Below, piece by piece: positions 1,775-50,525 of a stretch of DNA of 64,000 nucleotides. A program made the position numbers and the translations under genes. Every line of letters starts with the position of its first letter. Positions within the stretch are counted from its first letter, which is position 1. Source of the DNA: Pelagomonas calceolata (taxonomy: Eukaryota); contig CAKKNE010000004.1 in assembly GCA_918797485.1 (NCBI GenBank), forward strand, positions 2,914,001 to 2,978,000, in the 5' to 3' direction. Below the pieces are notes generated by a model, which ran no database searches, was not told the origin of the DNA, and worked only from the letters and a program-made list of their open reading frames with translations.

Positions 1775-1919
1775 GAAGCGAAGCGCTTTTGGGCAAAGGA
1801 GCTGTTAAAGAAGCAGTTACGCGCGTGAAAACGCGCCACGCAGCGTCTCTACAGCAGCGCTACAAACGCAGGAAACCGCGACAAAGACGCGAAAGGCAGC
1901 GCACGAGCACCCTTGCAGC

Positions 1920-4190: not shown

Positions 4191-4376
4191 CTCTGCTGGC
4201 TGCTTGTGTGCTGCGGAGTGTTGCTGAGTGAGTGCTGCACAGGCGGTGTGAGGTCTTGTCGATGGCGTGAAGCGCTGCTGACCGGTCGACAGGGTCCAGT
4301 ACGCTTCAGAAACGATTCGAATCGTCTTCAAGGCCCACCGTTATAGCCCAAAAACCAAGGGCCTGAGCTCAGTGAT

Positions 4377-4396: not shown

Positions 4397-4630
4397 CTCA
4401 GTTTTCATACTAGAAACCTGTTTTGGCCGCGGCATTTGCGCGGAGCCCTCCACCGTGTGGCAGACCCTCGCGAACACCTGGCACGCTGTGAACGACGCAG
4501 CGGTTGTAGCCGTCGCAGCGAGACGCCTCACGCGGTCCACAAAGACCAGCGCGAGCCGCATAACTCCTGTTCTACATCTAGTCGTTGGACCCGCGATCGG
4601 GACCCACAGCCCCCGTTAGGCAAAAACACA

Positions 4631-7080
4631 ATGGCCACGCCCCAACAACCGACGCGCGTTGTCGACGGTGCCGTTGTCGACACGCTCGCGCGGCTCCAGC
4701 AGCTCGCCGCGACGCTCGGCGCCACCGACGCGCTCGATTCGCTACCCCAGATTGTGGTCTTAGGCAGCCAATCAGCAGGCAAGTCCTCGACGATCGAATC
4801 GTTGGTAGGATTGTCCTTTTTACCTCGAGGCACGGGCATCGTGACGCGCTGCCCCCTCTTGTTACATTTAAGGCCGAGGGACACGGGGCCGGCGGATTAT
4901 GGGGTGTTCGGGCATGGGGGCGGCGCCCCGATCAGTGACATGGAGGCTATCAGAGCGGAGATCGAGGCGCAGACGGCGAGATTAGCTGGCGATGAAAAAG
5001 ACATTTGTGCTACTCCTATTGTTTTGAGATTGCACGTGGCCGGCGCTCCCTCCTTAACGTTGGTGGACCTACCCGGTGTCACAAGGGTTCCAGTCCGAGG
5101 CCAGCCCGACGATATTGGCGAGAAGATCAAGCGGTTGTGCCAGCAGTTCGCGCGGAACCCACGAGCCGTATTACTTTGTGTGAGTGCGGCGAACGCTGAT
5201 TTGGCTACGTCCGAGGCGTTAGTGTTGGCGAGAGAAGTAGATCGGGCCGGCGATCGCACCATCGGCGTGCTCACGAAGACCGACCTGATGGACCCCGGGA
5301 CGGACTGCGCGTCGATTCTGCGAAACGAGGTCTTTCCTTTGAGATTGGGCTACGTCGCTGTGGTTTGTAGGGGCCAGCGCGATTTGGACGAGGGCGGGAC
5401 TGTTGCGGCAGCGCAATCCAGGGAGCGGACGTTCTTCGCGAATCATGAAGTGTACGGTGCGCCTCGCCATCGAGAGTTGCTGGAACGGAGCTGCGGCATC
5501 GCCGTGCTGGCGCAGAAGCTCTCAGCTTTGTTAGTGGCAGCTACTCGAGAAGCGGCGCCTCATTTAAGACAGGCGTGTCGGGCGCGGCTCGACCAGGTCG
5601 AGAGCCGTGTGGAAATCACACCATCGACGCGACGTTGTCGCCGTGACCGCGTCGGTTCGATGGAACCTCACTGGTTGAATTTACACAGGTGGAGAGCCGC
5701 GCGGCGCAGCTGGGCGAGGAGGACTCGACGGGCGATCCCGCCCGAGTCGTCCTAGAGGCCGTTTTATTATACGCGAAGACGTACGCGACGCTGGCGCGCG
5801 ACGGGGCCGTCGGCGACGCGCGGTGGCTCGGGAATAGCGGCGACGCCGAGCTAAGGGGTGCTGCTCGACTCGCCCACGTCTTTGAACGCGTCTTCGCGGC
5901 GTCGCTGGCGAAGGCCGATCCGTTGGACGGTATTTCGGACGACGACGTGCGAGCCTGTCTGCTGGCGACGTCGGGTGCGTCGCCCGCGCTCTTCGCGCCC
6001 GAAAAGGCCTTCTACGCCTTGGTGCGGCAGCAGATTCAAAGACTGAGGGACCCGGGCCTGGAGTGCGTCGACCTGGTCTGCAGGGAATTGGAAAATTGCG
6101 CGGCACACGTGGCCGAGCCGCCCGTGGCGGACCAGAACGACGTGGTAGGCGCGGTGCCGGCGCCGTTAGCTCGATTGCGCCGGGCGCCGCGACTGCGAGG
6201 CGCGGTCCGCGAGGCCGTCGTCGAGATTGTACGGAAGGAAAAGGACGGCGCCAAGGAACGGGTCGCAGATTTAGTGGCTTGTGAACTCCAACACATCAAC
6301 ACGCGGCATCCGGACTTCGTGGCGGCTCTGTCGGACGTCACTGTTAGATTAGGTTGCCTCTCGGCGCCGTCGGCGGACTTCTCCGACGACGACATCGAGG
6401 ATAGAAGGATCGAGGAGGAGGAGCTCGAGGACACTTCCCCTGCTGAGCCCGAGCGGCGCGGCTGGTTCGGCGGGCTGCGGGGCGACTCCGTGACGCCGCC
6501 GCGGCGGTCGAATCGCCGCGAGTCGTTCGTGCTGAAGGATCAGCTCAAGCCGCGGCCCTACCAGAAGCCGCGGAAAGTCAAAGCGGATCCTTCTCATGTG
6601 GATGTGGTCAAGGCTCTAGTGCGGGCCTACTTCTCCGTCGTGCGCAAGACCTTCTGCGACCTCGTGCCCAAGATTGTGATGACCCACGTTGTCCACAAAG
6701 TTGAAGAGAAGATGCAGGCGACCCTCGTGGGTAGAGTTGCGGGCGCGGAGCACGCCGCTCTCTTGGAGGAGGACGCCGCCACCGCCCAAGAGAGAAGGGA
6801 GACGGCTCGGGCGCGCGACGGTTTGAGGGATGCGCTCCGCTTGCTCGACGACGTCCAGCACGCGCAGACGCCCGTGCGACACAGGGAGCGCGCGGACTCG
6901 CTCGAGGGCGGCTCGAGTCCCGCGCCGCTCACGCACAACAATGTTTCTACAAGAAGGCGGGACCGGTCGCCGGGGCCGCAGGGCTTCGCGCCTTCTCCCT
7001 CAAAGACGCCGCCGCGGAAGGGTGGCATCTCGGGCCTCGTCGCCGCGCGCAAGGAGAACTTCATGCGTGGGCGGCGCTGA
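4631..7080 (+). CDS. Dynamin-related GTPase (Dnm1/Vps1-like); exons 4631-5596 and 5689-7080
   Basis: G1 GSQSAGKSS, LPRGTGIVTRCP, G3 DLPG, G4 TKTD, middle domain (HINTRHPDF) and GED (AYFSVVRKTFCDLVPK); removing intron 5597-5688 joins the two ORFs in frame. Confidence 0.93.
5597..5688 (+). mobile_element. Short introner-derived GT-AG intron (92 bp)
   Basis: Element CCGTGTGGAAATCA...TTGAATTTACACAG (5605-5688) with imperfect TIRs; 8-bp TSD GTCGAGAG/GTGGAGAG; internal CCATCGACGCGACG shared with the long copies. Confidence 0.85.
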
Positions 7081-7144: not shown

Positions 7145-9038
7145 TCAGAAGTCCTCCGGCGCCACGTGGACGACCTTCGTGTTTTCGAACTCCTCCTCCG
7201 CCATCATCGCGCCGAAGCGGTCGAAGTAAACGATGACGACTATCATGTAGCACAGCGGCAGAGCGATCATCGCGCCGAGGTCGAGGTAACCCGCGACTCG
7301 ACGGGCAACAATCTCGGACGAGTCGCTCAGCTCGTGCTCCGTTACCAAGTCCTCCAGGCGCACGTTGGCGCCGAGACTCGCACCGCCGCCGCTCGGGGCC
7401 TCCTGGGCCTCCTCGTCGTCGCCGCCGGCTTCGGTGCCAGGGTCCGCAGGAACAACGCGGCGCCTCAGACCGGGACTGCTTAGCATGAGCGTCTCAGCGT
7501 CGCTACTCACATCTTTCCTATCGATGGCCGCTTGGACGCGCCGCAGGACGAAGTCCTTCCGGCGTTTTCTCTCGAGCTTCACAAAGGGCGCGAGCATGAG
7601 TCCAATAATTGGCGAGTGATAGGCCGCGAGACCGTCCGTCTGATAGATGTCTCCCACCAAATCATACCAGACTGGCAGCGTTATGCTCTGCCCGTGAAGC
7701 GATTCCAATTTCTTTCGGAGCTTGAAAAACTTGGCCGAAGGCAGTCCCAACTTTTTGACCGCCTCTTCGACCTCTTTCTTATCGAGCACGCCGCTGTGGT
7801 CGTGGTCCGCCTTGACGAAGGCGCTCACCAGCTCATGCTCGCTCATCACGCCAGTCGAGGTCTTCACGCCGTAGAGCGACACCGACAGCACGGAGACGGC
7901 GAGTGTAGCCCAGGAGAACGAAAACGAGATGACGTGGAGCATGGAGATGATGGTCATATTACCCGTCTTTGGCAGCACCTCGAACGCGACAATATAGATC
8001 GCGGCGCTCGTGAGCAGACACGTGATACCTGCGTGACGTCGGCGGGTGACGCCATCCCCGCGAGACGTCAGCAATTTTAATTTCAAGGACGCCGGGTCGC
8101 ACCGAGCGAGATCCGCTCCCCAGACTGGGGGTTCGCAACGAATGCCAGGAATCCCGCCAACGTGGTCAGTATCATCGGCACGACGAGGCCGTAATTGTAT
8201 GTTTCGCTGTGGCGCCGCATTCGAAACTTGTACTTTATTATCGGGTAGGGCTCAGGACAGCAATCGTAAAAGCCATCAACAGCCGCGGTCCGTACCTCCA
8301 CTAAATCGAACTCAGGATTCGGCTGGTACGACTCAGCGAATTTGAAGGGTATGGGTTCGTCTCCCCCTCTAGGCTTGATGTCGACCTGTAAGCCGTGCAT
8401 ACTCCAGCTGCCGAATTCGAACGTACATTCCTGCTGATCGAAGGGGAACGTCCGAGGCTTCATGGGGCAGGGTAATCTCGATTCGACGGGCACGGACCGG
8501 GCGACATAGCCGCTCGAGTAGACGTTCGGCTGGACGCCCCCAGGCACCTGAAATACGCTTTCCACAGCATCGTAGATGATGGTGTCTGGGATCCAGATCT
8601 GCTTGTGCTCGTCGTTGCCTGCGTGGATCAGTTTTTTCACGCCGACGAGCAGACGCGAAGTTAGTTCTACGCCGCGGCGGTACCGAAGAACGTGAGTTCC
8701 GTGATGCCGCCCCAGTCCGCAGGGTCCCACGCTAATCGAAGATCCGTCCACGAGTGCCGCCACCAGGAGAAGAATTGGATCTCCTGGTTAGTGGTGTCGA
8801 GCTTTTGGAATTGTTGCAGTGCCAACTGCACCGAGACGAGCGCTCCGCGCTCCGAACCAAAGCTCGGCGGTTGTACCGTCATGTCATAATTGGCGAGCAA
8901 GGCCTGTTTGAGCAGGGTCTCGTTCCTTTGCTTGTAGCATTCCGCATTTGTGCAGGTGGTATCGAGAGCTAGGCCGACGGGTCCCCCAGCATGCGCATGG
9001 GGCAGCCCCAGAAGGAGCAGCGCCCAGCTGGTCGCCAT
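7145..9038 (-). CDS. Cys-loop pentameric ligand-gated ion channel, alpha-nicotinic-like, with EF-hand; exons 9038-8684, 8618-8103, 8028-7145
   Basis: Signal peptide; WIPD; Cys-loop CPMKPRTFPFDQQEC; loop B FGSWS; loop C YDCCPEPY; M2 SGERISLGITCLLT; four TM segments; EF loop DHDHSGVLDKKE; collinear with the paralog at 48475-50288. Confidence 0.93.
8029..8102 (-). other. GT-AG intron (74 bp), absent from the paralog
   Basis: GTGCGA...CACGCAG; removal restores ISLGITCLL as in the paralog. Confidence 0.88.
8619..8683 (-). other. GT-AG intron (65 bp), absent from the paralog
   Basis: GTACCG...CACGCAG; removal gives FFGNDEHKQ versus FFGHDEHKQ in the paralog. Confidence 0.88.
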
Positions 9039-10456: not shown

Positions 10457-10486
10457 TTAATAACAAAGAGTATCTTACTCCACAAA

Positions 10487-13400
10487 CTAAGTGTCCACGA
10501 TAACCGTCGCCGGCGGCACAGCGAGCACTGCGGCGACGCCTCGGACAATGAAGAACGGCTGGTCCAGCACCTTGCCCGCGTCGCGTTCCGGTCGCGAGAG
10601 GCATTCGGACGCCGTCCGATTTCGCTCCGCGGTATTTTCGTATGCTTTCAGGTTGATCCAGAACAGAACCTCCGTGTGGCGCGTCGACGCGAAGACGGGG
10701 CAGCGGTACACGCCTTTTGGCGAGAGTCTTTCGGCCTCCTCGTCCTCATCGAAGAAGGCTTCTCGGGCGAGGGGAATGAGACTGACCACCGGCGCCGGAT
10801 CAAACGGCCCGTCGATGCGTTCGCACTCCCGCAGCGCCCCGCCGTCCGGCGCGAACTGGTCCCAGCGCGCGCCCTCTATCGTCATGCCCGTGATTGATAC
10901 GACTAGTTTGGGTGGCTCGACCGGCATTTTCTCATCTATGAGATCATCGCCGGGCGTCGCCGCGCGGCTCGCGGCCGGCGTCGACGCCCGCGACCGGGAC
11001 ACCTCGTCGCCCTTGAACGAGTCGAGGTCGCTCTGATCATCGTCCTCTTCGGGCTTGGCCCGCGAGTCGAGCCAGACCTCGTCGAGCGGGACGCCCCAGT
11101 GGCGCGCCGCCTGCAACCGCACTGCGTGCACAACGGCAGCTGGTTCCGCGAGTAGATCTAAAGGAATAGGACTCGGCGGCGCCAGGGCTTCGTACCAACC
11201 TGTGAGCAACCGCGCTCTGGCTTTCACGTGGTCGAACCAATCGCCGAGCGAGGCCATCGTTTCCGGTGGCGCCGATGCGTTGCGCCAGGCCGCGGGTATT
11301 TCGAGGCGCCGCAGCGACGAAGCAACATCTCCCAAACGTAGGCGCTCCTCGTCACTCGCTGGCGCCGAGCCCACGAGCGAACTTTGTAAAGCAGCCACGT
11401 CCGCGAAGACTTTGGAAGCCAAAATACGCAGTCTATCACGCTCCCGCAGCAATATCCCGTCGAACTCCGTCGGTGGGTCCGGCGCCTCGGTATAATCAGG
11501 CTCATCGGGCTTCGCATTTTTTGTGCGTCGCGCCCAGGCGCACGCGGCCTTGAAGGCCTGTTCGCGCCGCTTGGTGCACATGGCCACAATATCTTCTTCG
11601 ACGGAACCGACGGCCGCTTTCACGTCGGGCCTCGCTGCAGCGCCGGGCGCTTCGTCGGCGACGGGCGCATCGTCGGGCTCCAAGGACACCTGGCGGGGCG
11701 CCTCCTCGTCGAGCCTGGGCCCGAAGACGTCCGCCGCCTTGAAGCACAGGTCGAGCGTCGCCGCGAGCCGGACGTCGTCGAGCACGGTCTCGGGGAAGTA
11801 GGAACCGGCTCGTGCCGCCTTTGACGTCGCTGACGCAGATTCAGCGCTGCCGCGAAGGGCAGCAAGAATGGGCGCACCGCCGACCTCCTCCGCAGCTCGT
11901 TTCTCGGGCAGCTCCGCCGTCGTCCACGTCGTGGCGTCCTCGGGCCAATCAAGCAACTGCTGTGCTTTCGTCGAGCCGATCGACTTAGCGACGAATTCCA
12001 GCAACCGCTGGTCCACGTCACCGCCACAGCTAGTCGCTCCGATGCCCACAATGAGAGTTTGCAATTCCTTCCACCTCCCGCCTTTGACGGCGCGGCCGAC
12101 GGCTTTGAGCAGCGACCGACGGCCCGGCGGAGTAATTTCGGGCGCAATAAAAGGCCAAACGCCTTGGATGGCGTGAGAAGCCGCCCCTGAGAGTTGCGAC
12201 ACGCCGCCACCGTTCCAACCCAGGGACCCGAGGGCATCGCGCCGCTCGCCGCAGACCGCCAGAGTCGTCGCGCACCGCAAGGCCGCTTCTGATATGCCTT
12301 CATCATCACCAACGAGTGACGTCGTGCGTTCGACGGACTCGGCGAGCGTCCGCGGCGCGTCGAGCGCGACGACGGTCGACGCCGCGAGCAGCGCCTGCGG
12401 CACCGCCTTGACCGACGGCGCGGACACCAACCTTAGCGATGTGAGCGAGTCGACATGTGACTCCTCGCTAACGTCCTCGACGACGCTCAGCCAGAGCCGG
12501 AAGGTCGCGTGCGCCGGTTTGCCCGCGACGCCTCGCTCGACGAGCGGCTGGTCGACGGCGGCCCAAGCCACCGCAGATAGGATTTCAGGAGATGCAGTTG
12601 CGCAGTCTGTCACCAGCAGCCAGGCGCCCTCCGAGGCCGCCTGGGCGACCGCGCGGGCCGCGTGCGAGTCCGCGCCTACGACCACTAGCCTAACGCCGTT
12701 CGCGTCCGCGACGCGCTGCAGCGCCTCGCGACCGTCGTCGGCCTCCGGCGAGACGCGCAGAATGATAGGCGGTGCCGATTCGTCGTCCAGTGAAGCTGCT
12801 TTTTCGAGGGCAGAATCTTCCTCAGCTTGACCGAGCTCGGCCGCCGCGAAGGCCTCGAGCGCCGCAGCTAGCGCGTCGAAGCGGACCGCGCGTATGACGC
12901 AGAGCCGCTGCAGCGGGGTTAAATCCGCGTACGGGCTCGGGAACTCTTCATCATAAGGCGTCGCCGACTCCAGGACCTTCTCCCAATTATCGAGCGTCTT
13001 CTCGAGCCCCGCGAGCGCTGGAAGTGTGCCGCAGGCCTTGGCTCGTGCCCGCGCGTCCGCTGCGAAGAGCCAGTGGCCGCAGCGCGTCTCGTTCGGTAAC
13101 GACGCCCGGCGCGCGAGCTTGAGGTCTTCCAGCCGCCGTTTCGCGCCGCCGACGAGATTATTCCCACTCTTGAGCGCCATGAAATCCTCCTCGACCGGAT
13201 CCGTCGCGGGCCCGACCTCGCCGGTAAGCACGAAGCGCCATTCATCTCGTTCGGCGTCGCTCCAGTCCGGCCGGGCACACAAGCGCGCCTTGAGCGCGGT
13301 GAGTTCTTTACTGAGACATCCGCGGAGCGCCACCGCCGACGCCGCCCGGACGACGGCTTTACGAACTGCGGCGACGCGTTTGTGGACCTTCTCTTCTTCG

Positions 13401-15775
13401 TTTTCTTTCGTAGGCGCTTTGGGAGGCAGTCGCGCCGGCGTGTTGAGCGACGCGATGGCTCGACCGGCGCTCTGGAAGAGGAGATCCGATCCGATGGCGA
13501 GGCACATGGCCCCCAACCGCGCCGCGACCGGCCTTAAAGGTGCCAATGCAATCCTCCCTTGCCGGTCCTCCTCCCGCATCTCCGCCAGCTGCCCCCGCTT
13601 GAACCCCAGGTCCTTGATCGTCTCCTCGGCGTCCATGAGCACCTCGCGGTCGTCGAACAAATGGGCCGCAATGCCGGGACCGCGGCGATCCCTGCCGCAG
13701 AGCTTCCAGACGTGGACGTGCTTGCGCATCTCGGCCTGGAAGTCGGGCTTCGCCGCGGCCAGGCGCCCCTCGGCGTTTTTGAGTTCCTCGGCGATCGCAT
13801 TCGTACCGATCGCGTCGTGATCTCCTCCAATCGCCTCGCCGTCCGTCGGCGCCGCGCAGGTGACAAGGGCGCCGAAGAGCCGGTCCTCGGCCGCTTGGGC
13901 TTGGCGGTCCGCCACGGCCCGTTTGAACGCGAGCCGATCCAACGTGCTTGCTAGGGACGGCAGCTCGTGCTGCGCGACGCACTCCCACATGGCACGTGAA
14001 GATAACGCCGCACTCGGGTTGATCTTGACGACGTTGCAGCAGCCTCGCAATCTCGCAGATATAGAATCATCATCTGCAATCAGAAAGAGGTTGAAATTTT
14101 TCGGAGCTACCGCCCGGCCGCCTTGCACGACCGGGAGGAGCTCGAAGGGCAGCAGCGCCTCCCCCACTCCCTCGACGATGAGCCAGTGGCCATGCAAGGC
14201 GTCCGCGAGCGTTTCACTAAAATCCGCGTGCCCTATCCGGCACGAGAGCACGCCCGGCTCCCGCTCGCCCGTCTCCTCGTCGACGAACGTGCCGCGCTGC
14301 GGCCCCGTGGCGACGGCGCATCGCATGATGAACTTCCGCGCGACGCGCAGCGGGTCGATCAGTAAGGGCCACCGCGCGCACAGTAACGTGCAGGCCGCCG
14401 AGACGCCGCTCCCGGGCTCGTCGGCGTAGACCGCGCCCAGCCGCCACTCGAGCGTATCTCTCAAAGCGCCGAGCGTCGCGACCGTCAACGCGTCCGGGTC
14501 CTGGTCACCATGGGAAGGTTGTTGCGGGGCGTCCTCGAGCGCCGCCGGTTCGGATAGAGGAAGCACCTCATCGATACGCTTCCGCCACGCCTCCCAGAGC
14601 TCTAAGCGCTTCTCTAGATCGAGGCTCCCGAGATACGCGCCGGCCGCGCCCGCGAGGAGCGCGTCTCGACATGCATTCTCGCGCGCTGCTTTCAATCCCT
14701 CATATTCACAAGCCCAGCGCACGGCGTCGGCCGTCAGAGCCTCGGCGAACTGCACGGCAACCGTGGACCGCCGCTCGGCAATACCCTTCGCGTCGCCCTG
14801 GGCGAGGCTCGTCTCCTTCGCTTTTCTGTTCGCTTCGTCCAGATCATCCATGCGCTGCGAGATGGCCCCCAGCTCCTCGCGGCATGAGTCCTGCGTCGCC
14901 GCGTCTCCACTCTTCAAAGCCGCGGTCAACTCGTCGTTGAGCTCCGAGGCGCGGCCCTCGAGCGCTTCCCGATCCGCTTTCGCCTTGGCCGCGGCTTTCT
15001 TCTGCTGCGCCGCGATTTGCCCGGCGTTCGCCGTCGCCCACTTGAGCTGCGCCGCGGCCGTCTTCGCCGCGCGCCAGCACGTGAGCGCGCTATTCAAACG
15101 ATCGAGGCGCCGCCCCGTCTCCGCCACCCTCGCTGTATGAGCGCGCGCCGCGTCCCGCAGGAACGCGTGGAAGTGGCCCGGCGTCGCTTTGACATATTTC
15201 GCTGATATCGTGTGGAGGTCCGCCGCGAGCTGCGGCGCGTCCTCTGGCCACTCGGTTAACATAGAACGAGCCAGGTCCGCGCGCGCCGCGGCGTCATCAG
15301 ATCCGCAGCGCACGACGCACGCCGATGTAAAGAGAGCGGGCTCGCGCGCGGCCAGCGCCGCCGTCGCGCGGTTGTCGTCGCCGACCGTCGCGCAGACGAC
15401 GACGCGCAGGCGGCCACGGACGCGCGCCGCGCGCGCCGCGGCTTTCCCCGTGCGACTCGCATCGAAGTCGTCGTCGTCGGCCGTGGCCGCGGCCTCATCA
15501 CAAACCATGGCGGCCGCGAGCGCGCGCCACGCCGCGGCGTCGTCGCCGAGCTCGTCGTCGCCCACGACGATCGTCAATAGGTGCTGCTCGGTGGCTTCTG
15601 TTGGAATTTCCGCCGCTTCCTTCTTGGCGCGCTTTTTCTTGCCCTTCTTGCGAGCCTTCCGGGCCGGCGAGGGCGTCCGCGCGCGACTCTTTTTGGGTTC
15701 TGATTGAGGGGGCGCCGGGGCCGCCGCCTCCTCGACGGCCGGCGCGGGCGCGGGCGCCGGTGATGGTGCTGGCGC

Positions 15776-15807
<32 letters not shown>

Positions 15808-18800
15808 GCGCCGGCGCGTCGACGACCGGGGCCTCGTCCTCGATGACCGTGGGGAGGGGCGGCGGCACCGGCGGCGGCTTCGGCAGGCCGACGGGGCTCG
15901 GCTCGACGTCGCCGAGGCGACTTAAAGCCTGACACAGCGCCTCGCGGAAACTTGATGAGCCCTGCGTCCTTATTAAGTCCGACGCCGTCATGACCTCGCC
16001 GCCGATCAACCGGCACGCGAGCCGCGCGACTGTGCGGCGGCCCGACGCCGCTCCACCTAATAAAACGACGTGACCGCCCGGCCGGCGCAGGCACCGCGCC
16101 ACGCGCATGACGTCATGGATACACCGACTGACGGGATGCGCTATTGAAACATCCTCCCGCAGGGACTCCTTCACAAATGCGCCGTGGCAAAGCTTTGCGC
16201 GCGCGGCCGCCGCGTAGACCGGCGTCTTTTCTAAGCGAGCGTAGGCGCGTCGAGGTGGTGCCGCTTCTATGAGATAAGGCTTGGCCCGGGGCGGCGGAAT
16301 GTACGACGGCACCGACTCCTCGTCGACCGTCGACGCCTCTCCTCTTAATTTCCGCATGACATCATCCACCCCATCGTCGCGCAGCTCCGTCGTGAAGTAC
16401 GGGTCCGCGCCGAGCTCTCCCTCTTCTTCATCCGGCAACACCATGTCGCAAAAGTCAAGTTCTGAATCTTCGGGCACAATCGTCGAAAACTCCTGGCCGC
16501 CCAGCTCCTGCGGGCCCTCTTGAGATGCGGCGTCCTTCAGGAGGTCCTCGAAGTCGGATTTTGAGAATGAACCCGTCTCTGATAATCTATCCGCGAGGCA
16601 CCGCCGACACTCGTGCGCCCAGAGCCGCGTGAGCTCGGCCGCCTTCGACGGTGGAACGAGCAAAAACCCCTGCAGGATTCTTACCAAATCTCGTCGTCCG
16701 TACTGCAGGCCGCCCGTGTCCAGGACAACTTGTTGAGAAGAAGCGGGCTGTACCAAACCGCGGGCAACTTTGGCGCACTGCTGCACGAGCTCCACTGTGC
16801 ACCTCGCCAAGGCATCGATCGTGCGTGCCGGTTGACCTACTACGACGGACGCGAAGGCCGTCGCCAGGCCCAGCGCGCCCTCATCATCAACACGCAGCAC
16901 GCACATCCTCGACGCCAGCCGCGGCGCGATCTCCTGGAAACACCAGGGCGCGTGGCGCACCTCGCCCCTCTTCTCGACTCGATCAAAGTCGAACGGCAGC
17001 CCGTCCGACGCCGTGGCGACGACGGACACGTCTTCCAGTCGCATCGTACCCTCTCCAGTCGTATAGCTCTGCGCGTCGAGCACCTGTCTTACAAACTCCG
17101 ACGGCCCGCGCGGTAATAAAGCGACGTCGTCCATTCTGACAAATAAGGGTCCACCAATACCACCGAGGACGCCCCGCCGCCGCCGGTCGAGGCACCGCTC
17201 GAACGCACTCCGCAGATCCGCGGCCGTCGTGCCCAATGACGAATACACCGCACACGCATCGAAGGGCCGTTCGGCGGGCGGCAGTTCGCCGCGCCCCGGC
17301 GGCAGAACTACCGGCTCGGCACCCTCCAGGGCCTCGAGGGGCGCCAGCTCTATTTTCATATAGGCGCCCTCGGTGACGCCCGGCTTCTTCTTCTTCTTCC
17401 TCTTCTTGGGCGACTTTTGTGCCTGTGCTTTGAGCTCCTCCTGCGTCGTGATCAGCGCGCGGTCGAACTGCGTCGCGACGCCGTCGACGCAGCCCAACAA
17501 ACCTTGGAGCGCGGCCTGCGCCCCAGCGACGGCGTCGCCGTCGCGCATGCCGTCTATTAACAAGACCGAAGCGTTGCTGCACATGGCGAGCCGCGCGAGC
17601 CGCGCCCCGGCGGCGGCGGCCGGCGTCGGCAGGTAGATGGCACCGCAATGGTGTGTCGAAGGAATCGGGAGAGGAGGCGCCCGGGAGACCTTGGGCAAAC
17701 AGTCCGCCCACGGCACCCAGCGAGCTCTTCCAATATCGAGGCAGTAGCCATAAAGGTTGTCCTCCGGCAGGGGCGGGTAGAAGTCCACCAAAGGCCGCGC
17801 CTTGGCCACGAACTCCAGCTCGAAAGCAAGGCGCTCCTGCTCGGGTTGCACCGAGCCAACGGCCCACAGGAGCGCCCAGGCCACCGCACTATTCACGACC
17901 TCCGGCGCCCGCGCGCAGGCGCGTAGCGGGGGCAGCGGCGCGCCGGGCCGCGGTCGTAGGGGAGCGAGTAATAACCCATCCAAAAGAGCGACGAACGTCC
18001 CCGCGCACGACCCGCTCGCATGCTTCTGGAAGGCGCACGGCGCCAGCAGCGCTATGGCGGCCTGGAGCTTTGACTTGAGGGAAGGCATCGCGTCGGCCAT
18101 GACGTCGTCGACCAAGAGCGCAACTCTAGAACTCACGTCGAGCGTCGCATCATGTGAAGCGTAGTGCACGACTTGCAGCCGATTGATGAGCGCGGGCGAC
18201 GCGTTGGACAGGTCGTCCGTCTCGACGATGATGCGCTTGTCCATCATTGAGCTCCGGTGCGCGCCCTGCGCCGTCGGCGCCCCTATGTTATCAAGCGTCG
18301 CGCAGAGGACATCTCCAATCAAACCGTCAACAACACCATCGACGACGACGGTCTCGCACGTCTCCGACTCTTGCCACTCTCGGATCCGGTTCAAGTGCAC
18401 GTCGACGTGTTTCGTCCGCGTCCGGAGGACGGCGTCGAGCGCGTCCGGCGAACTGAGCGCTTGCGGGTAGACGCGCGTCGCCTTTAAAGAACGGAGTGCG
18501 CGCGACTTGCCGCAGCCCGCGGGTCCGACGACGCAGACGGCGCGCTTCGCTGCGAGGGCCTGCCGCGCCGCGACCAGCACATCAATGGCCTCGGGCCGCG
18601 GGTCGCAGCCCGCCTCGACTAGTTCCTGCCGGGCAGCTTCGCGGCCGTCGTCAGTGTCGTCCGGCGGTGCCACGTCGCCGCTCCAGTCGGCGAAGGCGTC
18701 CCGGACCAACTCGCGCACTAACAAAGAAGCGTTCTCCGAGGTAGATGCAAGCTTGAGGGCGACCTTGACGAAGGCGGCCGCGACAAGTTGACCGTCGCCG

Positions 18801-21800
18801 CGCGCGAGCGCGTCCTCGTCGTAGGCGGCGCGCGCCGCGGCCGCCGCGTTCACGCACGCGACCACGACGCGGACCGGGCGCGCCGACGCGAGCGCCGCCA
18901 ACGCGGACCACGCGGCGGCGCCTTCGTCCGACCCCGTCCGCGCGGCGGCGGCCGCCCAGCTCGCGTCACCTAGAAGTCTGATGGCGGACGCGAGCCGCCG
19001 GCCGCCGTCGATCGCGCCGGCCGACGTGAAGCCGTGCGCGGCGAGCGCGAGCGCCGCGACGCGGTGAAGGTCGGGCGCCGTCCGCAGAATTGGCCGCGCC
19101 CGCGCCGCCAGCGCGGCTGGGAACCGCGTCGGTAACCCGTCGAAGCAGAGGATGACCGCCGGGCCGTCTTCTCTCGATCCGGGCGGGGGCCGCCGGTGCT
19201 TCGGGCCGTGGGCCTCGTGGGGATGATGCGCCTCCGCGCGCGTCGCGTTTTCCAGTGAGGCGAGGTGCTGCGCCAGCGATGCGATCACATTAGAAGACGC
19301 CCTGGCGACGCCCGCGAGGACTAACCACAGACCGCCGTTCTCGAGGCCCGTGCAGACGCGCCTCAACAACGATTCGTCCACGTCCATGCAGTGGAGGCGG
19401 ACGACGGGCTGCGCCAGCATTTCTCCTAATTTCTCCGCTAGGCTCCGTTTGCCGGTGCCACCGCTGAGTGACGCAGTAACACCAACTCGCAGCGCCGCCA
19501 GAATCTCGAGCATGCATCTTTCACAATTCGGCGTGATGAACAGCGCCTCGCCCGCCGCGCCCCCTCGGTACTCGTCGCCGCAGAAGCGGCGACTCAACGC
19601 CGCCTCGGCGACGACGCGCCCCGCCTCCACGCCGTCCATGGCGATGGCCGCGGGATTCTCGAAGTAGAACCTCAAACGAGCAGCCCAGGCGAAGTCCTCG
19701 CAGGAAGCACACACGCTTTCAATTAACGAATCCGCCGCGTCTCGACCTTCGACCTCGAAGGCCGCAAAAGTTTGCAATTTCTGGAAAGTGTGCCTCGCGT
19801 GGTTTTCTTTCAGGCGTCGCGCCACGGAGTTGATGCGTACGAGTTGCCTCCTCTTTAACTCGTTCGTGCCCACGAAGCCTCTGTCCGTCAACAAACCCTC
19901 GGCCTCCGCCGTGAAGGCGCACCGCGCCGCCAGCAATCCAGAAGCCGCCTGCTGTTGTAAACACCAGGCGCCTCTCCCTGGTTCCTTGAGCATGGCCTCG
20001 GCAGAAGCTTGCGTCAGAGCTTGCACGGCCTCTTTCATACCTTTCTCGAGCTCGTTCAGCCACAACTCACAACGGCCGCCGGCGTCCACATCCTCGGTCT
20101 TCGCGAGTTCCAACGTTTCATGGATATCTTCCTCGTCAAAGGTCGACAGGTCGGCCTTCTTCGCGTAGGGCTCGTGCCGCGCGACCAACGCCTCGATCCT
20201 CAGCGAGTCTCCCACAAAACGGACGTCGGAAACGCCCGGGAAGCACAACACGACAGCTTTCCTCGCTCGTCTTTTCGTTTCGCGGGGGTCCTGGTCGGGG
20301 TCGCCGATCAACAAATCCCACAAGTCTTGTTCCGAGACCATGCAGAGCCGCGCGCAAGCTAATCTGCGAGCTTCCGCGAAGTCATGGATACCGCGCGTGG
20401 CCTCTTCCACATCAATCAAAGCGTCTTCTAATACGTTTTTCAGAGGAGCAAGTCGATCTTGAACTTCAATCACCCTCGCGCGGCCATTCACGCCCTTCGC
20501 GGCAGCACAGCACTTCGCGAGGGCCCTGGTGACTTTCGAGAAGGTCGCCGCCTCGTGGGGCAGCTGCTTCCTTAGGGCGTCGCCGCCGGCGGCAAAGACG
20601 GTAGCCAGGGCCTCCCACTTCCCTTGGACGGTCGCCCACCTTTCTAGCGTTTCCTCGGCTGCGCGCAATCGCGACGCGAGGTTCTTTACAGAAGCGTCGG
20701 CCATGACCGAAGGCGAATTGTCTCCTTCACCTGATAACGGCCCCGTGCGGCAGGCGTCGAGCTCGACCAGACACGTGTCGAAGGCCCTGAACAGCGCCTC
20801 CAACTTCACAAGCTTGTTGCCCGCGACGACGACCTTGGGGTCCTTCATCTTGCCGCTCTTGGCGCGCTCCGCGGGCCTTGTGACTTGGTGAGGCACGATG
20901 TCCAAGAGCTGATTGTTCCAGACGGCCTCGAGGCGGCGCGCCAGCGCCAGGGCCCGGCGGCACCTGTGAGCAGCGTCCGCGAGCCTTGCGACGGCGTGGC
21001 GGTTCTTGACTAAGGAATCGGTGATCCTCCGCACTTCGAAGCCCCTACCAAGAGGAAAGCCTAATAAAGCAGCGAGCTCGGCGCCCCACATTTCGAGGGT
21101 CGAGCACTCGTCTCCTTTTACAACCCAGTCCCGGTCGCCGCCGGCCGCCAGGCCCTTCACCACATAAGTCACGGCGTCGACGACGGGCTTTGCTCGAAAC
21201 GCCGCGGCGTCGAGCCCGCCCTCCAAATCTTGAACACATCGCGCTAGCCAGACCTGGCGCTCCGCCGACGCGACGACGCGCGCCGCGATCAATGACTTCG
21301 TCCAGGCCGGGCCCGCCGGCGCGTCGACGAGGCGGTCGACGTCGCCGTAACTCTCCCTGAGCTTTCCCGCGCCGCACCAGTCGCAGGCCGCGACGACGGC
21401 CGGGTCCTCGCGCGCCACGAGTCTCTCATTAAAAGCCTTCTTCGCGTTCGCGGCGTCCAGCAATGCTTGCCGGTCCGCGAGGATTTTCCCGCCGCGCCGC
21501 GCCAAGTCATAGGTCGGCTGCAGGTGGGCCAGGAAGGCCTCGTCGCGCGCCTCGCCGAGCCTCATGCTGGCAAAGGCGTCCGTCGCCTCGACGTTGTGCT
21601 CGCCAGCCGCGGCGAGGAGGCGGTGGGGCTCGAAGGCGTCGACGAGCGCTTCCAGAGAATCCGCCGGCGTCGGGTCTTTGCTGAGAATGCCCTCGCGCCG
21701 GTTCAAGTCGGCAAGTTCCTGCGTCAGCGCCTCGATGCTCTCCTGGGCGTCCTTGCAATCAGTTGACCGTTTCGCGACGGCCTTCAAGGCCCCGTCGAAG

Positions 21801-24800
21801 GCCGCGTCGCCCCGGAATCGCGCGGCGTCGTACTGGCACGCTTTCCGCACGAGCACCGCGGCCTCGGCCAGGCGCTCCTCGTACTCCGCCCTATCATCAT
21901 CTAAACGTTCCGTGTGCTGCGCGCGCATGCGTACGCATTCACCCTTGGCGCGTTTCAAGGATTTCAGCACTTTTGGTTCCCACGCTCTATCAGCTCGCGC
22001 GATGCACATGCCCTCGACGGCGTTGAGGGGCCTTCCATGTAACGCGCAGAGCTCCGCTATATTAGACGCGTCTCTGGCTGTGGCCAATATAGGCTTTATG
22101 AGCTGAGGCACCACTTCCACGAACTTTTCAACAGCCACGGTCGTCTCGGCGTCCGAGCAGGGCGTATCTAAAACAGCTTTGATTTTGCGCCATCGCGTCT
22201 CGCACCACGTCCCGATCAGGTAGCATTGGTCCGCGTGGCCATCCAACGTGTCGCGCCGCACGCCATGCAACGCGCGCAGCAGCGACCGCCGCGCGATGCT
22301 AGCGTCGCACTCCGTCAGGGCGCAGAGGCGCCGCGGCGAGGCGTCCAACGATGCTGACGCGGACTCGATCGTGGTCTTGCCTTCATTAAGTTCCCGGGCG
22401 ATCGTGCGGACATCTTTCGGGAGCGCGGGCGGCGCGGGGCCCAATCCTCCCTTCTTGACGGCGTTGCGCGCGCGACCCAAGGACGTGTCGGCGGGCTCCA
22501 GCTCGCACTCTTCATCATCAAGGTCGTGCGACCGCACATCCTCGGCATAGTTCCTTTTTAGTGACAGCTCGGCCGAGTCGCGGCCGCGCATCTCCCGCTC
22601 AAGCATGGCGCCGACGTCCCGCACATAAGTCGCGACCGGGTCCGCGGCCGTCGCCGCGCAGGCCCGCAGGCGCCGGAGGGCGTCGCGGACCCACGCCGGC
22701 TGCGCCTCCGACGCGCCGTCCCAGGGGCACGTGATCGCGCGCGGCGGCACGTACTGCAGATGACTTAGGGCGGAGACGCAGGGGTCGCCGCAGCGCGCGC
22801 AGCCCTCGAACAGCTTCTGGAGCGGCATGACCAAAGCGGCGGCGATGTCGGCGTCGCGGAGCTGGCCCTTCTTCGCAAAGGACCACTGCTTCTGGACCTT
22901 GCGCTTCTCCGAGGCCGTCATGTCGTCATTTAGATCATCCTTTATGTCGATGTCGAGGTCGAGGCGGAACCAGGGTTTTCGTAGGAATCGATCGTCCCTA
23001 CAAGTCTCCTCGACGGCTTCGACGTATCTCGCAGTCGCGATCCGCAGCGCCGTATCCAGCTCCGTGGCCATGGCGTACCGCGTCCGCTCCAGCAAGCGCC
23101 GCAGCGGCTCCTGGGGCGACTTGCGCGTGTCGAAGAGGTCCCCGTGGTACTCGACGCGCGTCGGGTCGAAGCACGGCTCCACGAGGCCGGTCAGGCCTGT
23201 CCGCAAGGCCTCGCCGACGTCCTTCGGCCAGGTTTTCTCAACGGCCGGGAGGCCTTTACTCAGGACCTCGGAGAAGAGGCGCTGAAAGGCCGCCGGCGAG
23301 AGCTGTACAGGGCGGTGGACAAGGAATGTGGCATCTAACGAATGCGTCGCAATGATCTTTTGAGCCCCCTGCGTCGCGCACAGAGCAAATCTGGAGCCCA
23401 CAAACGGGTGCAATTCGTTAAAATGGCCGTCGTCGTGCTTATCAACCACATCATCAGGAAAATGGATCTCCCGCGTCAAGCCGGCCTTGAGCGGCAGGAC
23501 GACCGGTTTTCGAGCGGGCGAGGCATTACCATCAATACGGTAGCCCTCGTCCGCCGTCGGTTCGTCAGAAGTGCCCCACTTACTTGAAATCCAATTCGCA
23601 TGTTGTCCCTCCTCCACATCCTCGTCATCAATCGCTTCCGAAGCCTCAGGAGCGACGTGGAGCAGGGCGTGCTTCGCCAGGAGGAACCGCCGGTGCGTAT
23701 CCTTCGAAACGAAGGCGTCCCTGTCAAAATCATCAAGTTCGGCCGTACAGTAACCCGGCGCGAACTTGACCGCCAGGGCATCCAACGCAGGCAAATCTAA
23801 TGTCCCGTCCGACGAGAGGAAGCGCACGTCTCTCGATGGAGCCTCGCCGGCGAAGGCTGCCTTGGCCAACTGGGCGAATATAAAACCCTGCATCTCGATG
23901 ACGTAGTCGCGCTCGGCCTCGTCCATTTCCTTGGCTAATTGAACATCGTTGCGCCAGGGCTTCGTTTCTCTATGTACACGTTCGTCTAAAGTGGGAAAGA
24001 GCTCGTTCCTCAAATTTGCGATGACTTTTTTGCACAAAGGCGCCGACGCGAAGAAGTGGCGGAGGCGTAGTCTTTCTTCACAAGCGGCGCGCCTTATAAG
24101 AGCCCCCTGCAACCGATTGATCGACACGAACCGGTCCTGCCAGGCACCGATCGTCGCGACGGCCGGGACCCAACTTTCAGGCGGCCAGGGGTCGTCGAAC
24201 CATTTCACGCGGTGGTTGCGCCCGTCGCCGTCGTCAGAATGCTGCAAGATGGTACAGGGCACCCACCGCCCCAACCTTCGTTCAAAGTCCGAGACCTGAT
24301 CACTCGGCGAGCGGTCCTGCCGCAACGCGACGGCCACGGGCTTTCCACCATACTTCCGCCAAGCTATGGTAGCGACCTCGACGTGGTCCGCGTCGTCAAA
24401 AATATGTAGGGGTAGCTGGGGCGCGTGGCTCAGGATCGCGCCGCCCTCTTTTGTGGAAGCCCAATCGGACATGAGCGCCCGCGCGGCGTCGCCTAAAGGC
24501 ATTTGATGGATCTCCTCGAGGCGCGCGGCGGCCTTGCGTTTCTTAATAGCGTCGCGCTGCTTTTGGGGCATCGCCGCCTTCCGAGGCCCGTCGATTTTTT
24601 GGGACGCGGAGAACTCGCTCCGCGGGTCCAAATGGGGCGGCTCGCAGCAGCCGACGCCCGGGTCCCGCTCAATTATGATAGGAGGCGGCGGCGTCTTCGG
24701 GCGCGGGGCCTCGAGGTTATCCAAGTCCATTGGTTGAACCACCCTCTTTCTTTTACTTAACTTGATGGGAGTGGGCTTTCTCACTCTAGGAACACTCCCA

Positions 24801-25819
24801 CTAATATGCGTCTCGGCGTAGCGCCTTAATAAAGCCTTGGAGCCGTCGTCGGCCTTCGCCAGATCGGAAAACGTGTCGACGAAGGCAGAAGCCGTCGAAA
24901 AAGCTAACGCAGCACCGCGCGCCTCGGCCTTATTCGGTCTTCCAGTATACCGCTTCTTTTGTTTAGGTTGGTAGTAGACGCCCGGCTTCTTCTCAACTTT
25001 CGGCTTCTTCTCCTTGGTAGCACCAGAGGGTGTAGTCGCCCGCGACTCCAAACCGCGCATTTGTTTGGAATATTCCGTCAATTGGTGCATCTGGGGCCCG
25101 TGGTCCTTCATGAAGTGCATGAACTCGTCGACGTCGACCAGGCCTGAAAAATCAACATCCAAAGCCCGCCAGAGGCCCCGCAGTTCGTCCAACGTTAAAT
25201 CTGCTTCACTGAGGTTGAGGCCGGGGTCCCGCATGCGCGTCACACCTTCGAGTTCTTCGAAGCCCATTCTTCCCGATTCATCGGTGTCGAAGTGGCCAAA
25301 AATTTTGAACCAGTTGCCGTCCGTGACACCGCTGCCCTCCTTCGAATATTCATGTACACATGCATCGTTCAGCTGCTGGCAGATGCGTTGTAAAGTTGCC
25401 TTCTGGAGCACGGGCCAGTCATCTAATATGAGCAAGTAGCAGGCGTGCTGGAACTCGTCGATGGTCACTTCGCCGCTCTTGTCGTGGTCCACATACGCCC
25501 ACAATCCTTCCAACTCTTCTTCTTTTATCTCCCCTTCCTTCCGGGGGACCTTGGAGTCCTTGCTTCGGATCGGGATCTCCAGCACGTCGGTGAGCGCGGT
25601 CTTGAACTCGTCGTAGTCGAGGCGGCCGCTCTTGTCCGTGTCGAGGCGCTCGAAGAGTAACGACCAGTTCTTGCGCATGCAGCCCTTGACGTCCCACTTC
25701 TCGTAGAGCTTGGGAAACGCGTCGTTCATGCGGAGCACGACGCTCCGCAGCACGGGCGCCGGGAGGCCGCTGGTCTCGTGCTGGTCGTGCCGCGTCGGGC
25801 GGCGGTTTTCCGAGACCAT
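10487..25819 (-). CDS. Highly divergent dynein heavy chain-like protein with N-terminal EF-hands (5110 aa, no intron needed)
   Basis: Linker-region motifs (LERWATVQGKWEALATVF; EARRLACARLCMVSEQDLWDLL), AAA1 entry EYRG..LFITPNCERC, AAA2 GPAGCGKS, RLWAHECRRCLADRL, AAA4 GHVVLLGGAASGRRTVARL, RWPLLIDP, C-terminal IEGARWD and YRCPVF; four EF loops at the N-terminus. Confidence 0.9.
15700..15890 (-). repeat. Pro-Ala low-complexity coding repeat inside the AAA4 region of the dynein
   Basis: APAPAPAPAPGPAPAPAPSPAPAPAP followed by a Lys-rich patch. Confidence 0.7.
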
Positions 25820-26337
25820 GGCTGTGTATTTATGTGTGCGCTTACTATCACTGCTGCCTTGATTTATGCGATGCGGCGCTGCCTGCTTGGCTCTCAGCTA
25901 AGGCAGCACTGTGCTCGGCCGACTGCGCTTCTGCGCAGGAATCGACGAGCGTGCCGCAGGAATGGGAAAAGTGGCAAAGGGCAGCGTCTCCCGCACGACT
26001 GCCCGCCCTCCCGTCCGCAGAGCTGTGGCTTTTTGCACGGCGCTGAATCAAAGGTACGGGCTGCGCTTTCTTGCGGTGAAAATCCCCGATCGCAGGTGTA
26101 AATCTACGTCTCGAAACGTGCAGCCACCGGTCAAGGATCAACAAGCAGGGGACAAAACCAAGCGTCTTTAGCGCCTCTGCTCTCCGAGACGCGCGCGGCC
26201 TCTGTCCGCGTCGTCGGGCTGCCCTCGACGAGAAGTCGACGCGCCACAACACCTATCGCAGTCGCGTCCCGCTGGCTGCCCGCAAGGAGTCACAAGTTGG
26301 AACCCCTGTGGCTGCCCAACCTCTTGCAAGCAGCACC

Positions 26338-28254
26338 ATGGACGAACTACCGCCCAAGACCCCGATGACCCCCGGCGTCGGGCCGCGCTTCGGGCTGGAG
26401 GAGGAGACGTCCTTCGCCGGCAACACCGCGCCGACCGTCGTGAGCTCCGAAGGGACGTCTACCGTCGCCGAGCGGCTCTGGCGCGCCAAGGTGGCGAAGA
26501 AACTGCAAAAGAAGGCCTGGAACCGCTACTGGAAGAAGGACAAATTTTGCGAGGCGGCCGGCGTGCGCGACGCGGACTGCAAGAGATATTTGGAGCTTTC
26601 AAGAAGACACAGCGACGAGCTCTCGTACGACGAGGAGGACGAGCTGGCCGCGCTCCAGAAGCGCATTCACCAAGGCGGCGCGCGGGCCGTGCGGCCCGAG
26701 CGGACGATGCAGCCCTGGGAGGCGCGCCTGCGGCGGCTCTCGTCGGTGGTCGAGGAGGCGCCACAGCCTCAGCAAGTGCGACGCAAGAAGAAGACTCGCG
26801 TCGGCCGGCCGAGGTCCGCCGCGGACAACTCCCTGACGGCGAAGCGCCTCAAGGACGTGCGCAACCGCGAGCGGCGCGAGCTCGCGGCCCGGACGGAGGA
26901 CGGCTCGCTCGCGTCCCAGGTGTCGCACGACGGCGACGTGCGCGCGCACCTGGCCATGACGCGGGCGGCGGACAACGCGACGTCGATCCCCGAGGCCGCT
27001 ATGTTGGTGGCGCCGCCGATCGAGTTCCTCCACCCGCAAGGTCTCCCGCCACAACACCTACTCGTCCCCGTGCGCAACCACCACCCGCCGGAGTGGGTCA
27101 AGCCCACGGGCAAGTCGCCCCCTCCCTCCTTAGAAGCGACGTCCGTGAACGACACGGCCTCACTCACCACTGTAGAGACGGCCGCGACCACTCATACAGA
27201 GATGACGCCGGGGACGCTGGACACTGTTGAATCACCATTACGACTCAAGGCGACGCGCGACACGCACGGCGAGCACGTCTCGCACCAGGAGCACCACCAG
27301 AACCTCGCCCACAACAAAATGGTGAAAAACGTCAAAAAAGCCGTAGCTTTGTTTGGACACGCGGGCAAGTCCGGCGCGGCCGTGGCCTCGTTCAAGGCCT
27401 TTGGGAAAATACGGAGTAAGAGAAGGGGCAAGGACCAGGCCCGAGAAAGGATCCAGCTGAGCCGCCGGGATCTTGTTGACTTGAATCCACAGCACATTGT
27501 GGATTTGTTGCGGCACACGTCGCTCGAGGAGCTGAAACGCGCCGCCTCCAGCGCCCCCTACCGGGAAGAGGCTCGTCAGGAATTACAAAAAGCGCTCGAG
27601 CAGTGCCGCGTCTGCCGCAACCGGACGGACTTTTGTGAGGAGTGCAAGAAGTGCGCGAACGGCTGGTTTTCGCGTAATAGATGGGCCCTGGAGCGCATCG
27701 AGAACGAAGTGAGCGTGGAGACGCGGCGCGTTTTGATGGAGACGGAGAAGGCTTCTGTGTTTGAGCCCTGCCGCCGGTCGCTCGACGACACGCCGCCCAA
27801 GGAGGAGGACACGCGGCGCAAGAAGATCGCCCAGACCATCGTGAGGGAGCAACAACGTCAGTACGACTGGTTAGATAAACATGACCGGAAGCGCGAGATC
27901 GTGTCGGAGAGAGACACGCCCATGAAGAACCGCTTCGATAACAAAGATAAGCGCATCGCCATCCCGGCGCCCGTCGGCCCGACCGGTTTGATAACAAAGA
28001 AGATACCGCTGGAAGGCAAGGCCGTCTACACCAAAGTCGACGAGCTCAGGCAGTGGGACCATCATTTATCAAACGGCCGGCAAGGGACGCCGGCCGAGTG
28101 GCCCAACTGCTGGCGCAAAACCAAAAAGGAGCTCGCCGAGGAGCTCGCCGCGGCGGAGAACCGGGCGTCGCGGGCCAGCTCGCGGGCCAACTCGCGGCCG
28201 GCGACCTCGGGGACGAGAGTGAGTTTCGCGGTCGCGGACGACCGTCTAATGTGA
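26338..28254 (+). CDS. Hypothetical basic, largely disordered protein with a CxxC..CxxCxxC cluster
   Basis: Long ORF, ATG at 26338; CRVCRNRTDFCEECKKC. Confidence 0.75.
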   Translation: MDELPPKTPMTPGVGPRFGLEEETSFAGNTAPTVVSSEGTSTVAERLWRAKVAKKLQKKAWNRYWKKDKFCEAAGVRDADCKRYLELSRRHSDELSYDEEDELAALQKRIHQGGARAVRPERTMQPWEARLRRLSSVVEEAPQPQQVRRKKKTRVGRPRSAADNSLTAKRLKDVRNRERRELAARTEDGSLASQVSHDGDVRAHLAMTRAADNATSIPEAAMLVAPPIEFLHPQGLPPQHLLVPVRNHHPPEWVKPTGKSPPPSLEATSVNDTASLTTVETAATTHTEMTPGTLDTVESPLRLKATRDTHGEHVSHQEHHQNLAHNKMVKNVKKAVALFGHAGKSGAAVASFKAFGKIRSKRRGKDQARERIQLSRRDLVDLNPQHIVDLLRHTSLEELKRAASSAPYREEARQELQKALEQCRVCRNRTDFCEECKKCANGWFSRNRWALERIENEVSVETRRVLMETEKASVFEPCRRSLDDTPPKEEDTRRKKIAQTIVREQQRQYDWLDKHDRKREIVSERDTPMKNRFDNKDKRIAIPAPVGPTGLITKKIPLEGKAVYTKVDELRQWDHHLSNGRQGTPAEWPNCWRKTKKELAEELAAAENRASRASSRANSRPATSGTRVSFAVADDRLM

Positions 28255-50288: not shown

Positions 50289-50525
50289 GGTGGTCCTGGG
50301 ACAGCCCTTTGTAGAAGATTCTGGCACTGGCGACTGGCACTGGCACTCTGCAATTGCTCTGCACGTGAAATGCGGTGCCTCTCAAGTGGGCTGCCGCATG
50401 GGCGCGTGATCTGCGCATGGCGCCCAATAATCGGAACGTGTCCAATGTACGAAGAGATTACTGATGTATATATACTACTTCTTAGTATGTTCAACTAGAC
50501 ATGATGCGACGGTGCGAATAATCGA

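Follow-up and report, generated by a model that had tools for sequence, protein, structure and literature searches.

An orphan dynein heavy chain of Pelagomonas calceolata with four fused EF-hands is predicted to be non-motile

The 64,000-nucleotide stretch of Pelagomonas calceolata DNA analysed here (the window; contig CAKKNE010000004.1, positions 2,914,001 to 2,978,000) carries on its reverse strand the gene for a pelagophyte dynein heavy chain, an uninterrupted open reading frame (ORF) of 5110 amino acids (aa) at 25819-10487 that ends in one terminal stop. The remaining five frames hold 61-144 stops over 10487-25819, and the GC content at third codon positions (GC3) of the ORF stays at 0.69-0.84 along its full length. 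From N to C terminus, Pfam recovered four EF-hand stretches (aa 55-240), DHC_N2, AAA_6, an AAA lid, AAA_7 (weak), AAA_8, AAA_9, Dynein_heavy and Dynein_C, matches to unrelated families with E > 0.001 being disregarded as chance. The linker, six AAA modules and C-sequence, in that order, mark the chain as a member of the dynein heavy chain superfamily, and 60 of 60 chains among the matches listed in a PDB sequence search were of dynein type. An earlier note on this DNA had described a giant ORF with dynein landmarks in order; translation and Pfam order bear this out, every motif it quoted was found in place, and of the families it named the scan returned the EF-hand and dynein ones in order, MT only partially.

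Transcription was followed in four polyA RNA runs from a single sample, 6-12% of each being read. RNA was found on the strand of the ORF, at a depth of 31-86 in the final ORF bin that dropped to ~0-6 across the 5' two thirds, and read starts clustered at 10479-10492, immediately beyond the stop. Depth was at least 1.8 in every ORF bin for one run, with one empty bin in another; reads that originate at other loci and match the ORF over short stretches contribute to the 5' depth. No splice joint inside the ORF was listed in these runs, with their low 5' depth. This pattern fits one long unspliced transcript, without proving it. We rejected hidden introns or an assembly fusion, given the absence of splice joints in the ORF and a second protein, P0284, that joins the EF-hand part and the dynein tail in one frame.

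An exhaustive search with aa 1201-2300 yielded one full-length ortholog, P0122 (Pelagophyceae, KAJ1449661.1, 5460 aa), then ~20 fragments at 41-94% identity and, beyond these, canonical chains at 23-30%. P0122 is 28% identical to the 5110-aa chain by BLAST and 34% over profile columns. Relatives at 57-95% identity, among them a 762-aa piece at 94%, occur in marine data. Other routes were less productive: a word search with the whole protein returned canonical chains alone, at 20-26% identity, and missed P0122; a search of 878-2505-aa proteins with an AAA1 profile gave 2 matches among 7995 scored, both canonical; and a JGI scan contained no ortholog among the 80 loci listed. No DNHD1, class 12-16 or Aureococcus orphan sequences were identified in our homologue set.

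The state of the AAA ring was read against a reference profile built from 20 canonical heavy chains, to which all homologue hits were aligned. The AAA1 Walker A motif, SLSGGTGKR (19445-19471), aligns as SG--GTGKR, with two residues deleted, the lysine kept and threonine changed to arginine; in P0122 it reads GAAGAGKT. In the Walker B region, GLWLVLAGVAR (19301-19333), LAGVAR occupies the motif and the acidic pair, conserved in 226 other heavy chains to 100% (D) and 99% (E), is absent. Both residues are also missing from P0122, where the region was inspected by eye, and a fragment at 77% identity (P0125) likewise reads LAGVA. The register is correct: LAGVAR aligns to CFDEFNR in PDB dyneins as well as in the 20-chain profile, which rules out mis-registration of Walker B. 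The sensor I asparagine (99% of 224 other chains) is lost from both proteins and the sensor II arginine (100% of 214) from the 5110-aa chain. The inserts H2 and pre-sensor-I of AAA2 remodel the linker, and both motifs are lost from the 5110-aa chain and P0122. Retained in the two proteins are the Walker A lysine, the arginine finger supplied by AAA2 and the AAA2 P-loop (GPAGCGKS, 18503-18526, in the 5110-aa chain); the AAA3 P-loop is absent from P0122. At AAA4 an arginine replaces the lysine, which is uninformative because 27% of other chains also lack lysine there.

None of the AAA sites in the 5110-aa chain combines an intact P-loop with a catalytic Walker B glutamate, and retention of near-invariant columns is down to about one half in every region. 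The earlier description of the chain as looking motor-dead thus stands on the degenerate Walker B, sensors, AAA2 inserts and stalk, and not on Walker A, which keeps its lysine. Altered AAA1 motifs also occur in other heavy chains, namely P0201 (GAAGVGKT/DELNH), P0264 (GPAGVGKT/DQFDS) and P0267 (GPTSVGKT/KDFNN), and judging from these motifs partly dead dyneins may occur more widely. As to inserts in the ring, AAA4 of the 5110-aa chain holds a Pro/Ala repeat and a Lys-rich stretch, and P0122 has low-complexity inserts at near but not identical sites.

The stalk is short and ends without a microtubule-binding domain. The segment from RRLDRLNSAL to ADAVRW (15112-14714) spans 133 aa; measured by patterns, the stalk has 121 aa in the 5110-aa chain and ~125 aa in P0122, against a median of 293 aa (range 236-412) in the 103 of 120 proteins measurable by the patterns used and 280-312 aa in 49 ORFs from 80 loci among the matches listed in the JGI scan. 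Pfam MT matched the second coiled coil only (profile 244-337 of 344, E 0.026), whereas two control dyneins gave full-length matches; together with the profile and PDB alignments, this partial match rules out a mis-registered stalk. AlphaFold2 folded aa 3470-4140 into a bare helical hairpin lacking the microtubule-binding domain, with the buttress retained and a predicted local distance difference test (pLDDT) score of ~70-83 over most of the hairpin, lower at its start; the first 113 residues of the model, where the alignment is scattered, have pLDDT < 50. A fold search with this model returned dyneins only among the matches listed, with 3VKG at rank 3. The ~290-aa stalk with a microtubule-binding domain that characterizes a motile dynein is therefore not found in the 5110-aa chain, and the earlier proposal of a track-less pseudo-dynein is backed by the sequence, by a second ortholog and by a predicted model.

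Because P0122 carries the same motor losses at only 28-34% identity, these losses are old. Persistence of an open 15.3-kb frame in two lineages so far apart indicates selection, and the shared losses and retentions suggest that it acts on a non-motor role.

The tail was compared with seven profiles made from grouped homologues, whose labels were assigned here: DHC3, 4, 7 and 8 through named members, DHC9 within the analysis, and DHC5 and DHC6 by inference. With aa 400-1300 of the 5110-aa chain, DHC8 scored 41.5 bits and DHC7 6.2, the other five classes being negative or without a hit; with P0122 the values were 45.5 and 29.6, and none for the five others. Among the full-length sequences that match the 5110-aa chain best are oomycete DNAH1-type chains. 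The tail alone found no match in PDB sequences, and a tail profile built from two sequences had too little power to be of use.

At the N terminus, the EF loops lie at aa 60, 111, 178 and 221 (between 25642 and 25124), and each of the four has the canonical form of 12 residues, D occupying positions 1 and 3, G position 6 and E position 12. The cassette is modelled as paired helix-loop-helix folds with pLDDT mostly 80-94 (the tail portion of this N-terminal model is unreliable), and its fold matches EF-hand proteins, among them calmodulin or centrin at ~20% identity. P0284 (462 aa, 47% identity over aa 48-489) runs from the cassette into the start of a dynein tail in one frame, which extends the fusion to a second lineage. 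A short tether motif is common to the 5110-aa chain, P0284 and P0122. P0280 holds three tandem copies of the cassette, and others are found in P0283 and within the unrelated 2179-aa P0296, all at 55-66% identity; RNA reads of a cassette paralog (LYLLILEGW) are present in the same polyA sample. None of 205 other tail-bearing dyneins in the homologue set carries the cassette, and an Atlas search with it returned generic EF-hand clusters only. The ~230-aa four-EF-hand unit, tandem or inserted in unrelated marine eukaryote proteins (P0280, P0283, P0287, P0296), has an undescribed look. A 1305-aa multi-EF-hand ORF elsewhere in the window (59689-63606, +) shows no special likeness to it.

Published Pelagomonas data supply an expression context. 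The dynein table of P. calceolata (Supplementary Data 13), in the part of the source consulted here, lists a 5068-aa model labelled DHC4A as iron-sensitive, and by eye its first 400 residues match the 5110-aa chain (PMC13284251). The label would conflict with the tail, in which outer-arm features are lacking: Pfam DHC_N1 and Kelch are absent and the DHC4 tail profile is negative. Module membership was looked up for 11 of the 24 other heavy-chain rows (PMC13284251); the 'brown' co-expression module, which has at most 760 occurrences among at least 11,526 genes, holds the 5068-aa model and eight of the nine axonemal heavy chains looked up, with DHC1, DHC2 and one DHC7 outside it (PMC13284251). 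The equally long DHC1 and DHC2, which fall elsewhere, act as length controls for this membership. A normal DHC8 model is in the same table, as are two 3765-aa DHC4A models, identical over the 400 residues shown and ankyrin-like at the N terminus by eye (PMC13284251), which look like a further P. calceolata dynein with an unusual fusion.

Table 1. Features of the dynein heavy chain gene, with positions in the window
Feature	Position	Strand	Support
Single-ORF orphan dynein heavy chain gene, 5110 aa	10487..25819	-	Translation, Pfam, same-strand RNA
Four-EF-hand cassette, aa ~20-245, two repeats of helix + EF pair	25085..25762	-	Pfam, model, paralogues
Low-complexity tether, ~190 aa, predicted disordered	24500..25084	-	pLDDT < 50 over most of aa 260-414
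Tail and neck, single-headed inner-arm type, best match DHC8/DNAH1	20720..24499	-	Tail profiles, neck match
Linker (DHC_N2)	19640..20722	-	Pfam and profile; 26/45 near-invariant columns kept
AAA1, degenerate	18620..19567	-	Profile alignment; 24/67 near-invariant columns kept
AAA2, P-loop GPAGCGKS and arginine finger SPALINR intact, H2 and pre-sensor-I inserts degenerate	17660..18622	-	Alignment
AAA3, P-loop lost (LIDGMRDGDAV), Walker B DD kept	16580..17602	-	Alignment
AAA4 (GGAASGRRT), with Pro/Ala/Lys-rich insert of ~100 aa at 15590-15904	15170..16132	-	Pfam and alignment
Short stalk, helix aa 3551-3637, two-residue turn near 14900, helix aa 3640-3714	14714..15109	-	Model, Pfam MT, pattern measurement
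AAA5, buttress coiled coil retained, extended at tip	13430..14713	-	Pfam, alignment, model
AAA6 region	11960..13042	-	Pfam and profile
C-sequence (Dynein_C)	10490..11482	-	Pfam and profile

The gene lies head to head with an expressed, oppositely transcribed ORF of ~640-720 aa (26080-28254, +) that has no Pfam match, and a promoter common to the two is possible. Elsewhere in the window, Cys-loop ligand-gated ion channel domains (Neur_chan_LBD) occur in genes at 8083-8787 (-), which contains an RNA-supported 65-base intron at 8617-8683, and at 48534-50381 (-). A dynamin gene at 4397-7080 (+) occupies two reading frames, with an intron as the probable cause, and adjoins genes for aspartate kinase (1809-3527) and dephospho-CoA kinase (3468-4340).

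The absence of the AAA1 Walker B residues and of the microtubule-binding domain leads us to predict that the chain is non-motile. We consider, at about an even chance, that it is a likely structural or regulatory occupant docked in the inner-arm row of the flagellum, and most likely it serves, as DNAHX or DNHD1 do, in the role of an axonemal heavy chain without motility. The tail would dock on the A-tubule in the manner of DHC8 (dynein d), with which it would have its accessory chains in common. The ring would remain folded, held by nucleotide at AAA2 and perhaps by unhydrolysed ATP at AAA1, whose lysine and arginine finger are kept. It would deliver no powerstroke, and the shortened coiled coil, with ~60 residues per helix, would be unable to grip the next doublet and could act instead as a protein-contact arm. 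In the Pelagomonas lineage, the four-EF-hand module on its flexible tether may add a Ca2+ switch at the tail, a place where DHC8 is normally without centrin. A fuller version, tentative and on balance unlikely, is that pelagophytes evolved a class of pseudo-dyneins from a single-headed inner-arm motor, in which a tip-less, hydrolysis-dead ring takes a place in the axonemal repeat and, by way of four EF-hands of its own, would brake or clutch the inner-arm motors beside it under Ca2+ gating, altering the beat.

Several observations weigh against the inner-arm reading. The DHC8 tail match is weak (41-46 bits), and although the 5110-aa chain and P0122 form a clade in every motor tree, the position of the pair shifts: a 74-row tree places it between DHC7 and DHC8, and 37- and 24-row trees put it outside the single-headed chains and outside all seven classes. 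An approximately unbiased (AU) test on fixed topologies (11 placements, only 2000 replicates) prefers the base of DHC3/4/5 and rejects five placements; sister to DHC8 (p = 0.23) and sister to DHC4 (p = 0.46) are not rejected, nesting within DHC8 (p = 0.027) is. Short reads, low 5' depth and a single sample leave the single transcript unproven. Genes under the Gene Ontology term 'axonemal dynein complex' fall in the turquoise module in 9 of 17 cases, and the proteome tables contain neither the gene id nor three of nine other heavy chains looked up (PMC13284251). As to the EF-hands, the cassette is missing from the P0122 gene model, which begins just past the cassette position, and it occurs in proteins unrelated to dynein.

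The motor branches of the pair are very long, and we attribute the failure to place the motor in a tree to this length. A DHC8-like tail with an unplaced motor also makes a tail-motor chimera possible. P0201, which stands beside the pair in the 74-row tree, was rejected as kin; it is DHC7-like with a full stalk, and its position reads as long-branch attraction. In the comparison with axonemal heavy chains that the earlier note had proposed, the tail matches DHC8 best and the motor placement varies between trees. Absence of the cassette from P0122 may reflect loss, later gain or an incomplete gene model. Ca2+ sensing, as the note had foreseen, is favoured by the canonical loops and the fusion in the P0284 lineage, and is weakened by the mobility of the cassette and its absence from P0122. 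The flagellar role likewise stays a prediction, for which the inner-arm-type tail and co-expression with axonemal heavy chains speak indirectly.

The same co-expression would also suit a chaperone of assembly or transport, a pseudo-motor locked in its conformation, which would partner active single-headed dyneins and inhibit them during delivery into the flagellum. All of the ring, linker, buttress and C-sequence are retained, and with Walker B missing the kept Walker A lysine and arginine finger would fit an ATP-locked state; such a role, with a phi template, has been proposed for DNAHX in the text available to us (PMC11785096). DNAHX, however, derives from a two-headed outer-arm chain, whereas the tail here is of single-headed type, its role is itself only a proposal, and the intraflagellar transport dynein DHC2 falls in a different module (PMC13284251). 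We regard the idea as doubtful.

That every motor function is predicted lost, and that the cassette family is also found in non-dynein proteins, could instead point to a scaffold outside the axoneme, at the basal body, at the rootlet or in the cytoplasm, for which the dynein fold is merely a platform. The inner-arm-type tail and the axonemal co-expression argue otherwise, and Kollmar argues for an axonemal location of orphans with such tails, in the portion consulted (PMC5100056); we hold a non-axonemal site to be distinctly improbable.

Very long branches, with about half of the near-invariant columns gone, would agree with a duplicate that is redundant and evolves under relaxed selection, whose flagellar-type promoter still drives transcription and which acquired a mobile EF cassette without consequence. 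Missing proteome entries and a normal DHC8 model in the same species would suit it as well (PMC13284251). Such a relic, though, is hard to reconcile with 5110 codons free of stops and frameshifts, with a full-length P0122 bearing the same specific losses and retentions, or with the close marine relatives at up to 95% identity, and we consider it very unlikely. The kept buttress and AAA2 P-loop, with the arginine finger and the lysine of AAA1, might be cited for an unusual motor or ATPase that is still active and uses a new surface to bind microtubules or a different track. This is scarcely credible for a chain with no site combining P-loop and Walker B glutamate, no microtubule-binding domain and degenerate linker-remodelling inserts.

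For the inner-arm reading, the nearest precedents are heavy chains already described as non-motile (PMC11785096, PMC5100056, each in the parts available), which makes a dead dynein less unusual than the earlier note had treated it. In the literature searched, which excludes most subscription papers, we found no description of the motor defects of this chain or of a tip-less algal dynein. DNAHX, known by cryo-electron microscopy from sea urchin axonemes (bioRxiv 2025), is an ATP-locked, non-motile heavy chain reported absent from protists, and like the 5110-aa chain it exceeds 5000 aa, has many insertions, a degenerate AAA1 and an impaired stalk (PMC11785096). It is animal-only and of outer-arm origin, with Walker B kept and a folded-back microtubule-binding domain (PMC11785096), whereas the present chain is algal, has a single-headed-type tail and EF-hands, and lacks the Walker B pair and the tip domain. 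To judge from these differences, the 5110-aa chain is not a member of the DNAHX subfamily and arose separately. DNHD1, a human orphan required for flagellar assembly, lacks the catalytic Walker B residues (PMC11785096); it shares this loss but belongs to a different lineage, and is compared here by description only.

Orphan dyneins retain tails of ancient classes; those described include two from Aureococcus, AuaDHC_A/B, and the Chlamydomonas orphan DHC12/pcr4, which has a DHC8-like N terminus, and orphans bearing such tails were argued to localise to axonemes (all as treated in the consulted sections of PMC5100056). ATP sites lay outside that analysis. Class 12 dyneins are without a typical microtubule-binding site; they are holozoan, with an outer-arm-type tail and no coiled coil (PMC5100056), whereas the 5110-aa chain keeps its coiled coil. 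DHC8/DNAH1/dynein d itself is an active motor with a full stalk that binds actin, p28, p38 and p44 (PMC5100056), and the chain shares with it tail homology and ~25% identity, and not its motor features. In 3VKG, an engineered motor truncated for the microtubule-binding domain, the stalk is equally tip-less but AAA1 is intact. The Ca2+ sensors LC4, calaxin, DC3 and centrin are separate subunits, according to the source as seen in part (PMC4415241); EF-hand sensing is tied to a heavy chain in these systems also, and in the 5110-aa chain the module is a fused cassette of a pelagophyte-type family.

Non-motile heavy chains have so far been described from animals, and the algal case would represent independent evolution from a different parent in a globally abundant and culturable host. 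It also amends annotation: the prediction of a non-motile product applies to a gene that had been grouped with the iron-responsive 'DHC4A' motors of Pelagomonas. Through the fused EF-hand module, the control of stramenopile flagella by Ca2+ would become directly accessible. Reduction of the motor has gone further here: Walker B is missing and the tip is cleanly removed, while the ring, the buttress and the coiled coil remain, making the chain a natural test of the roles of a dynein that does not pull. Measured against the animal precedents, what is new in this predicted protein is the clean tip deletion, the single-headed-type tail, the EF-hand fusion and the algal host.

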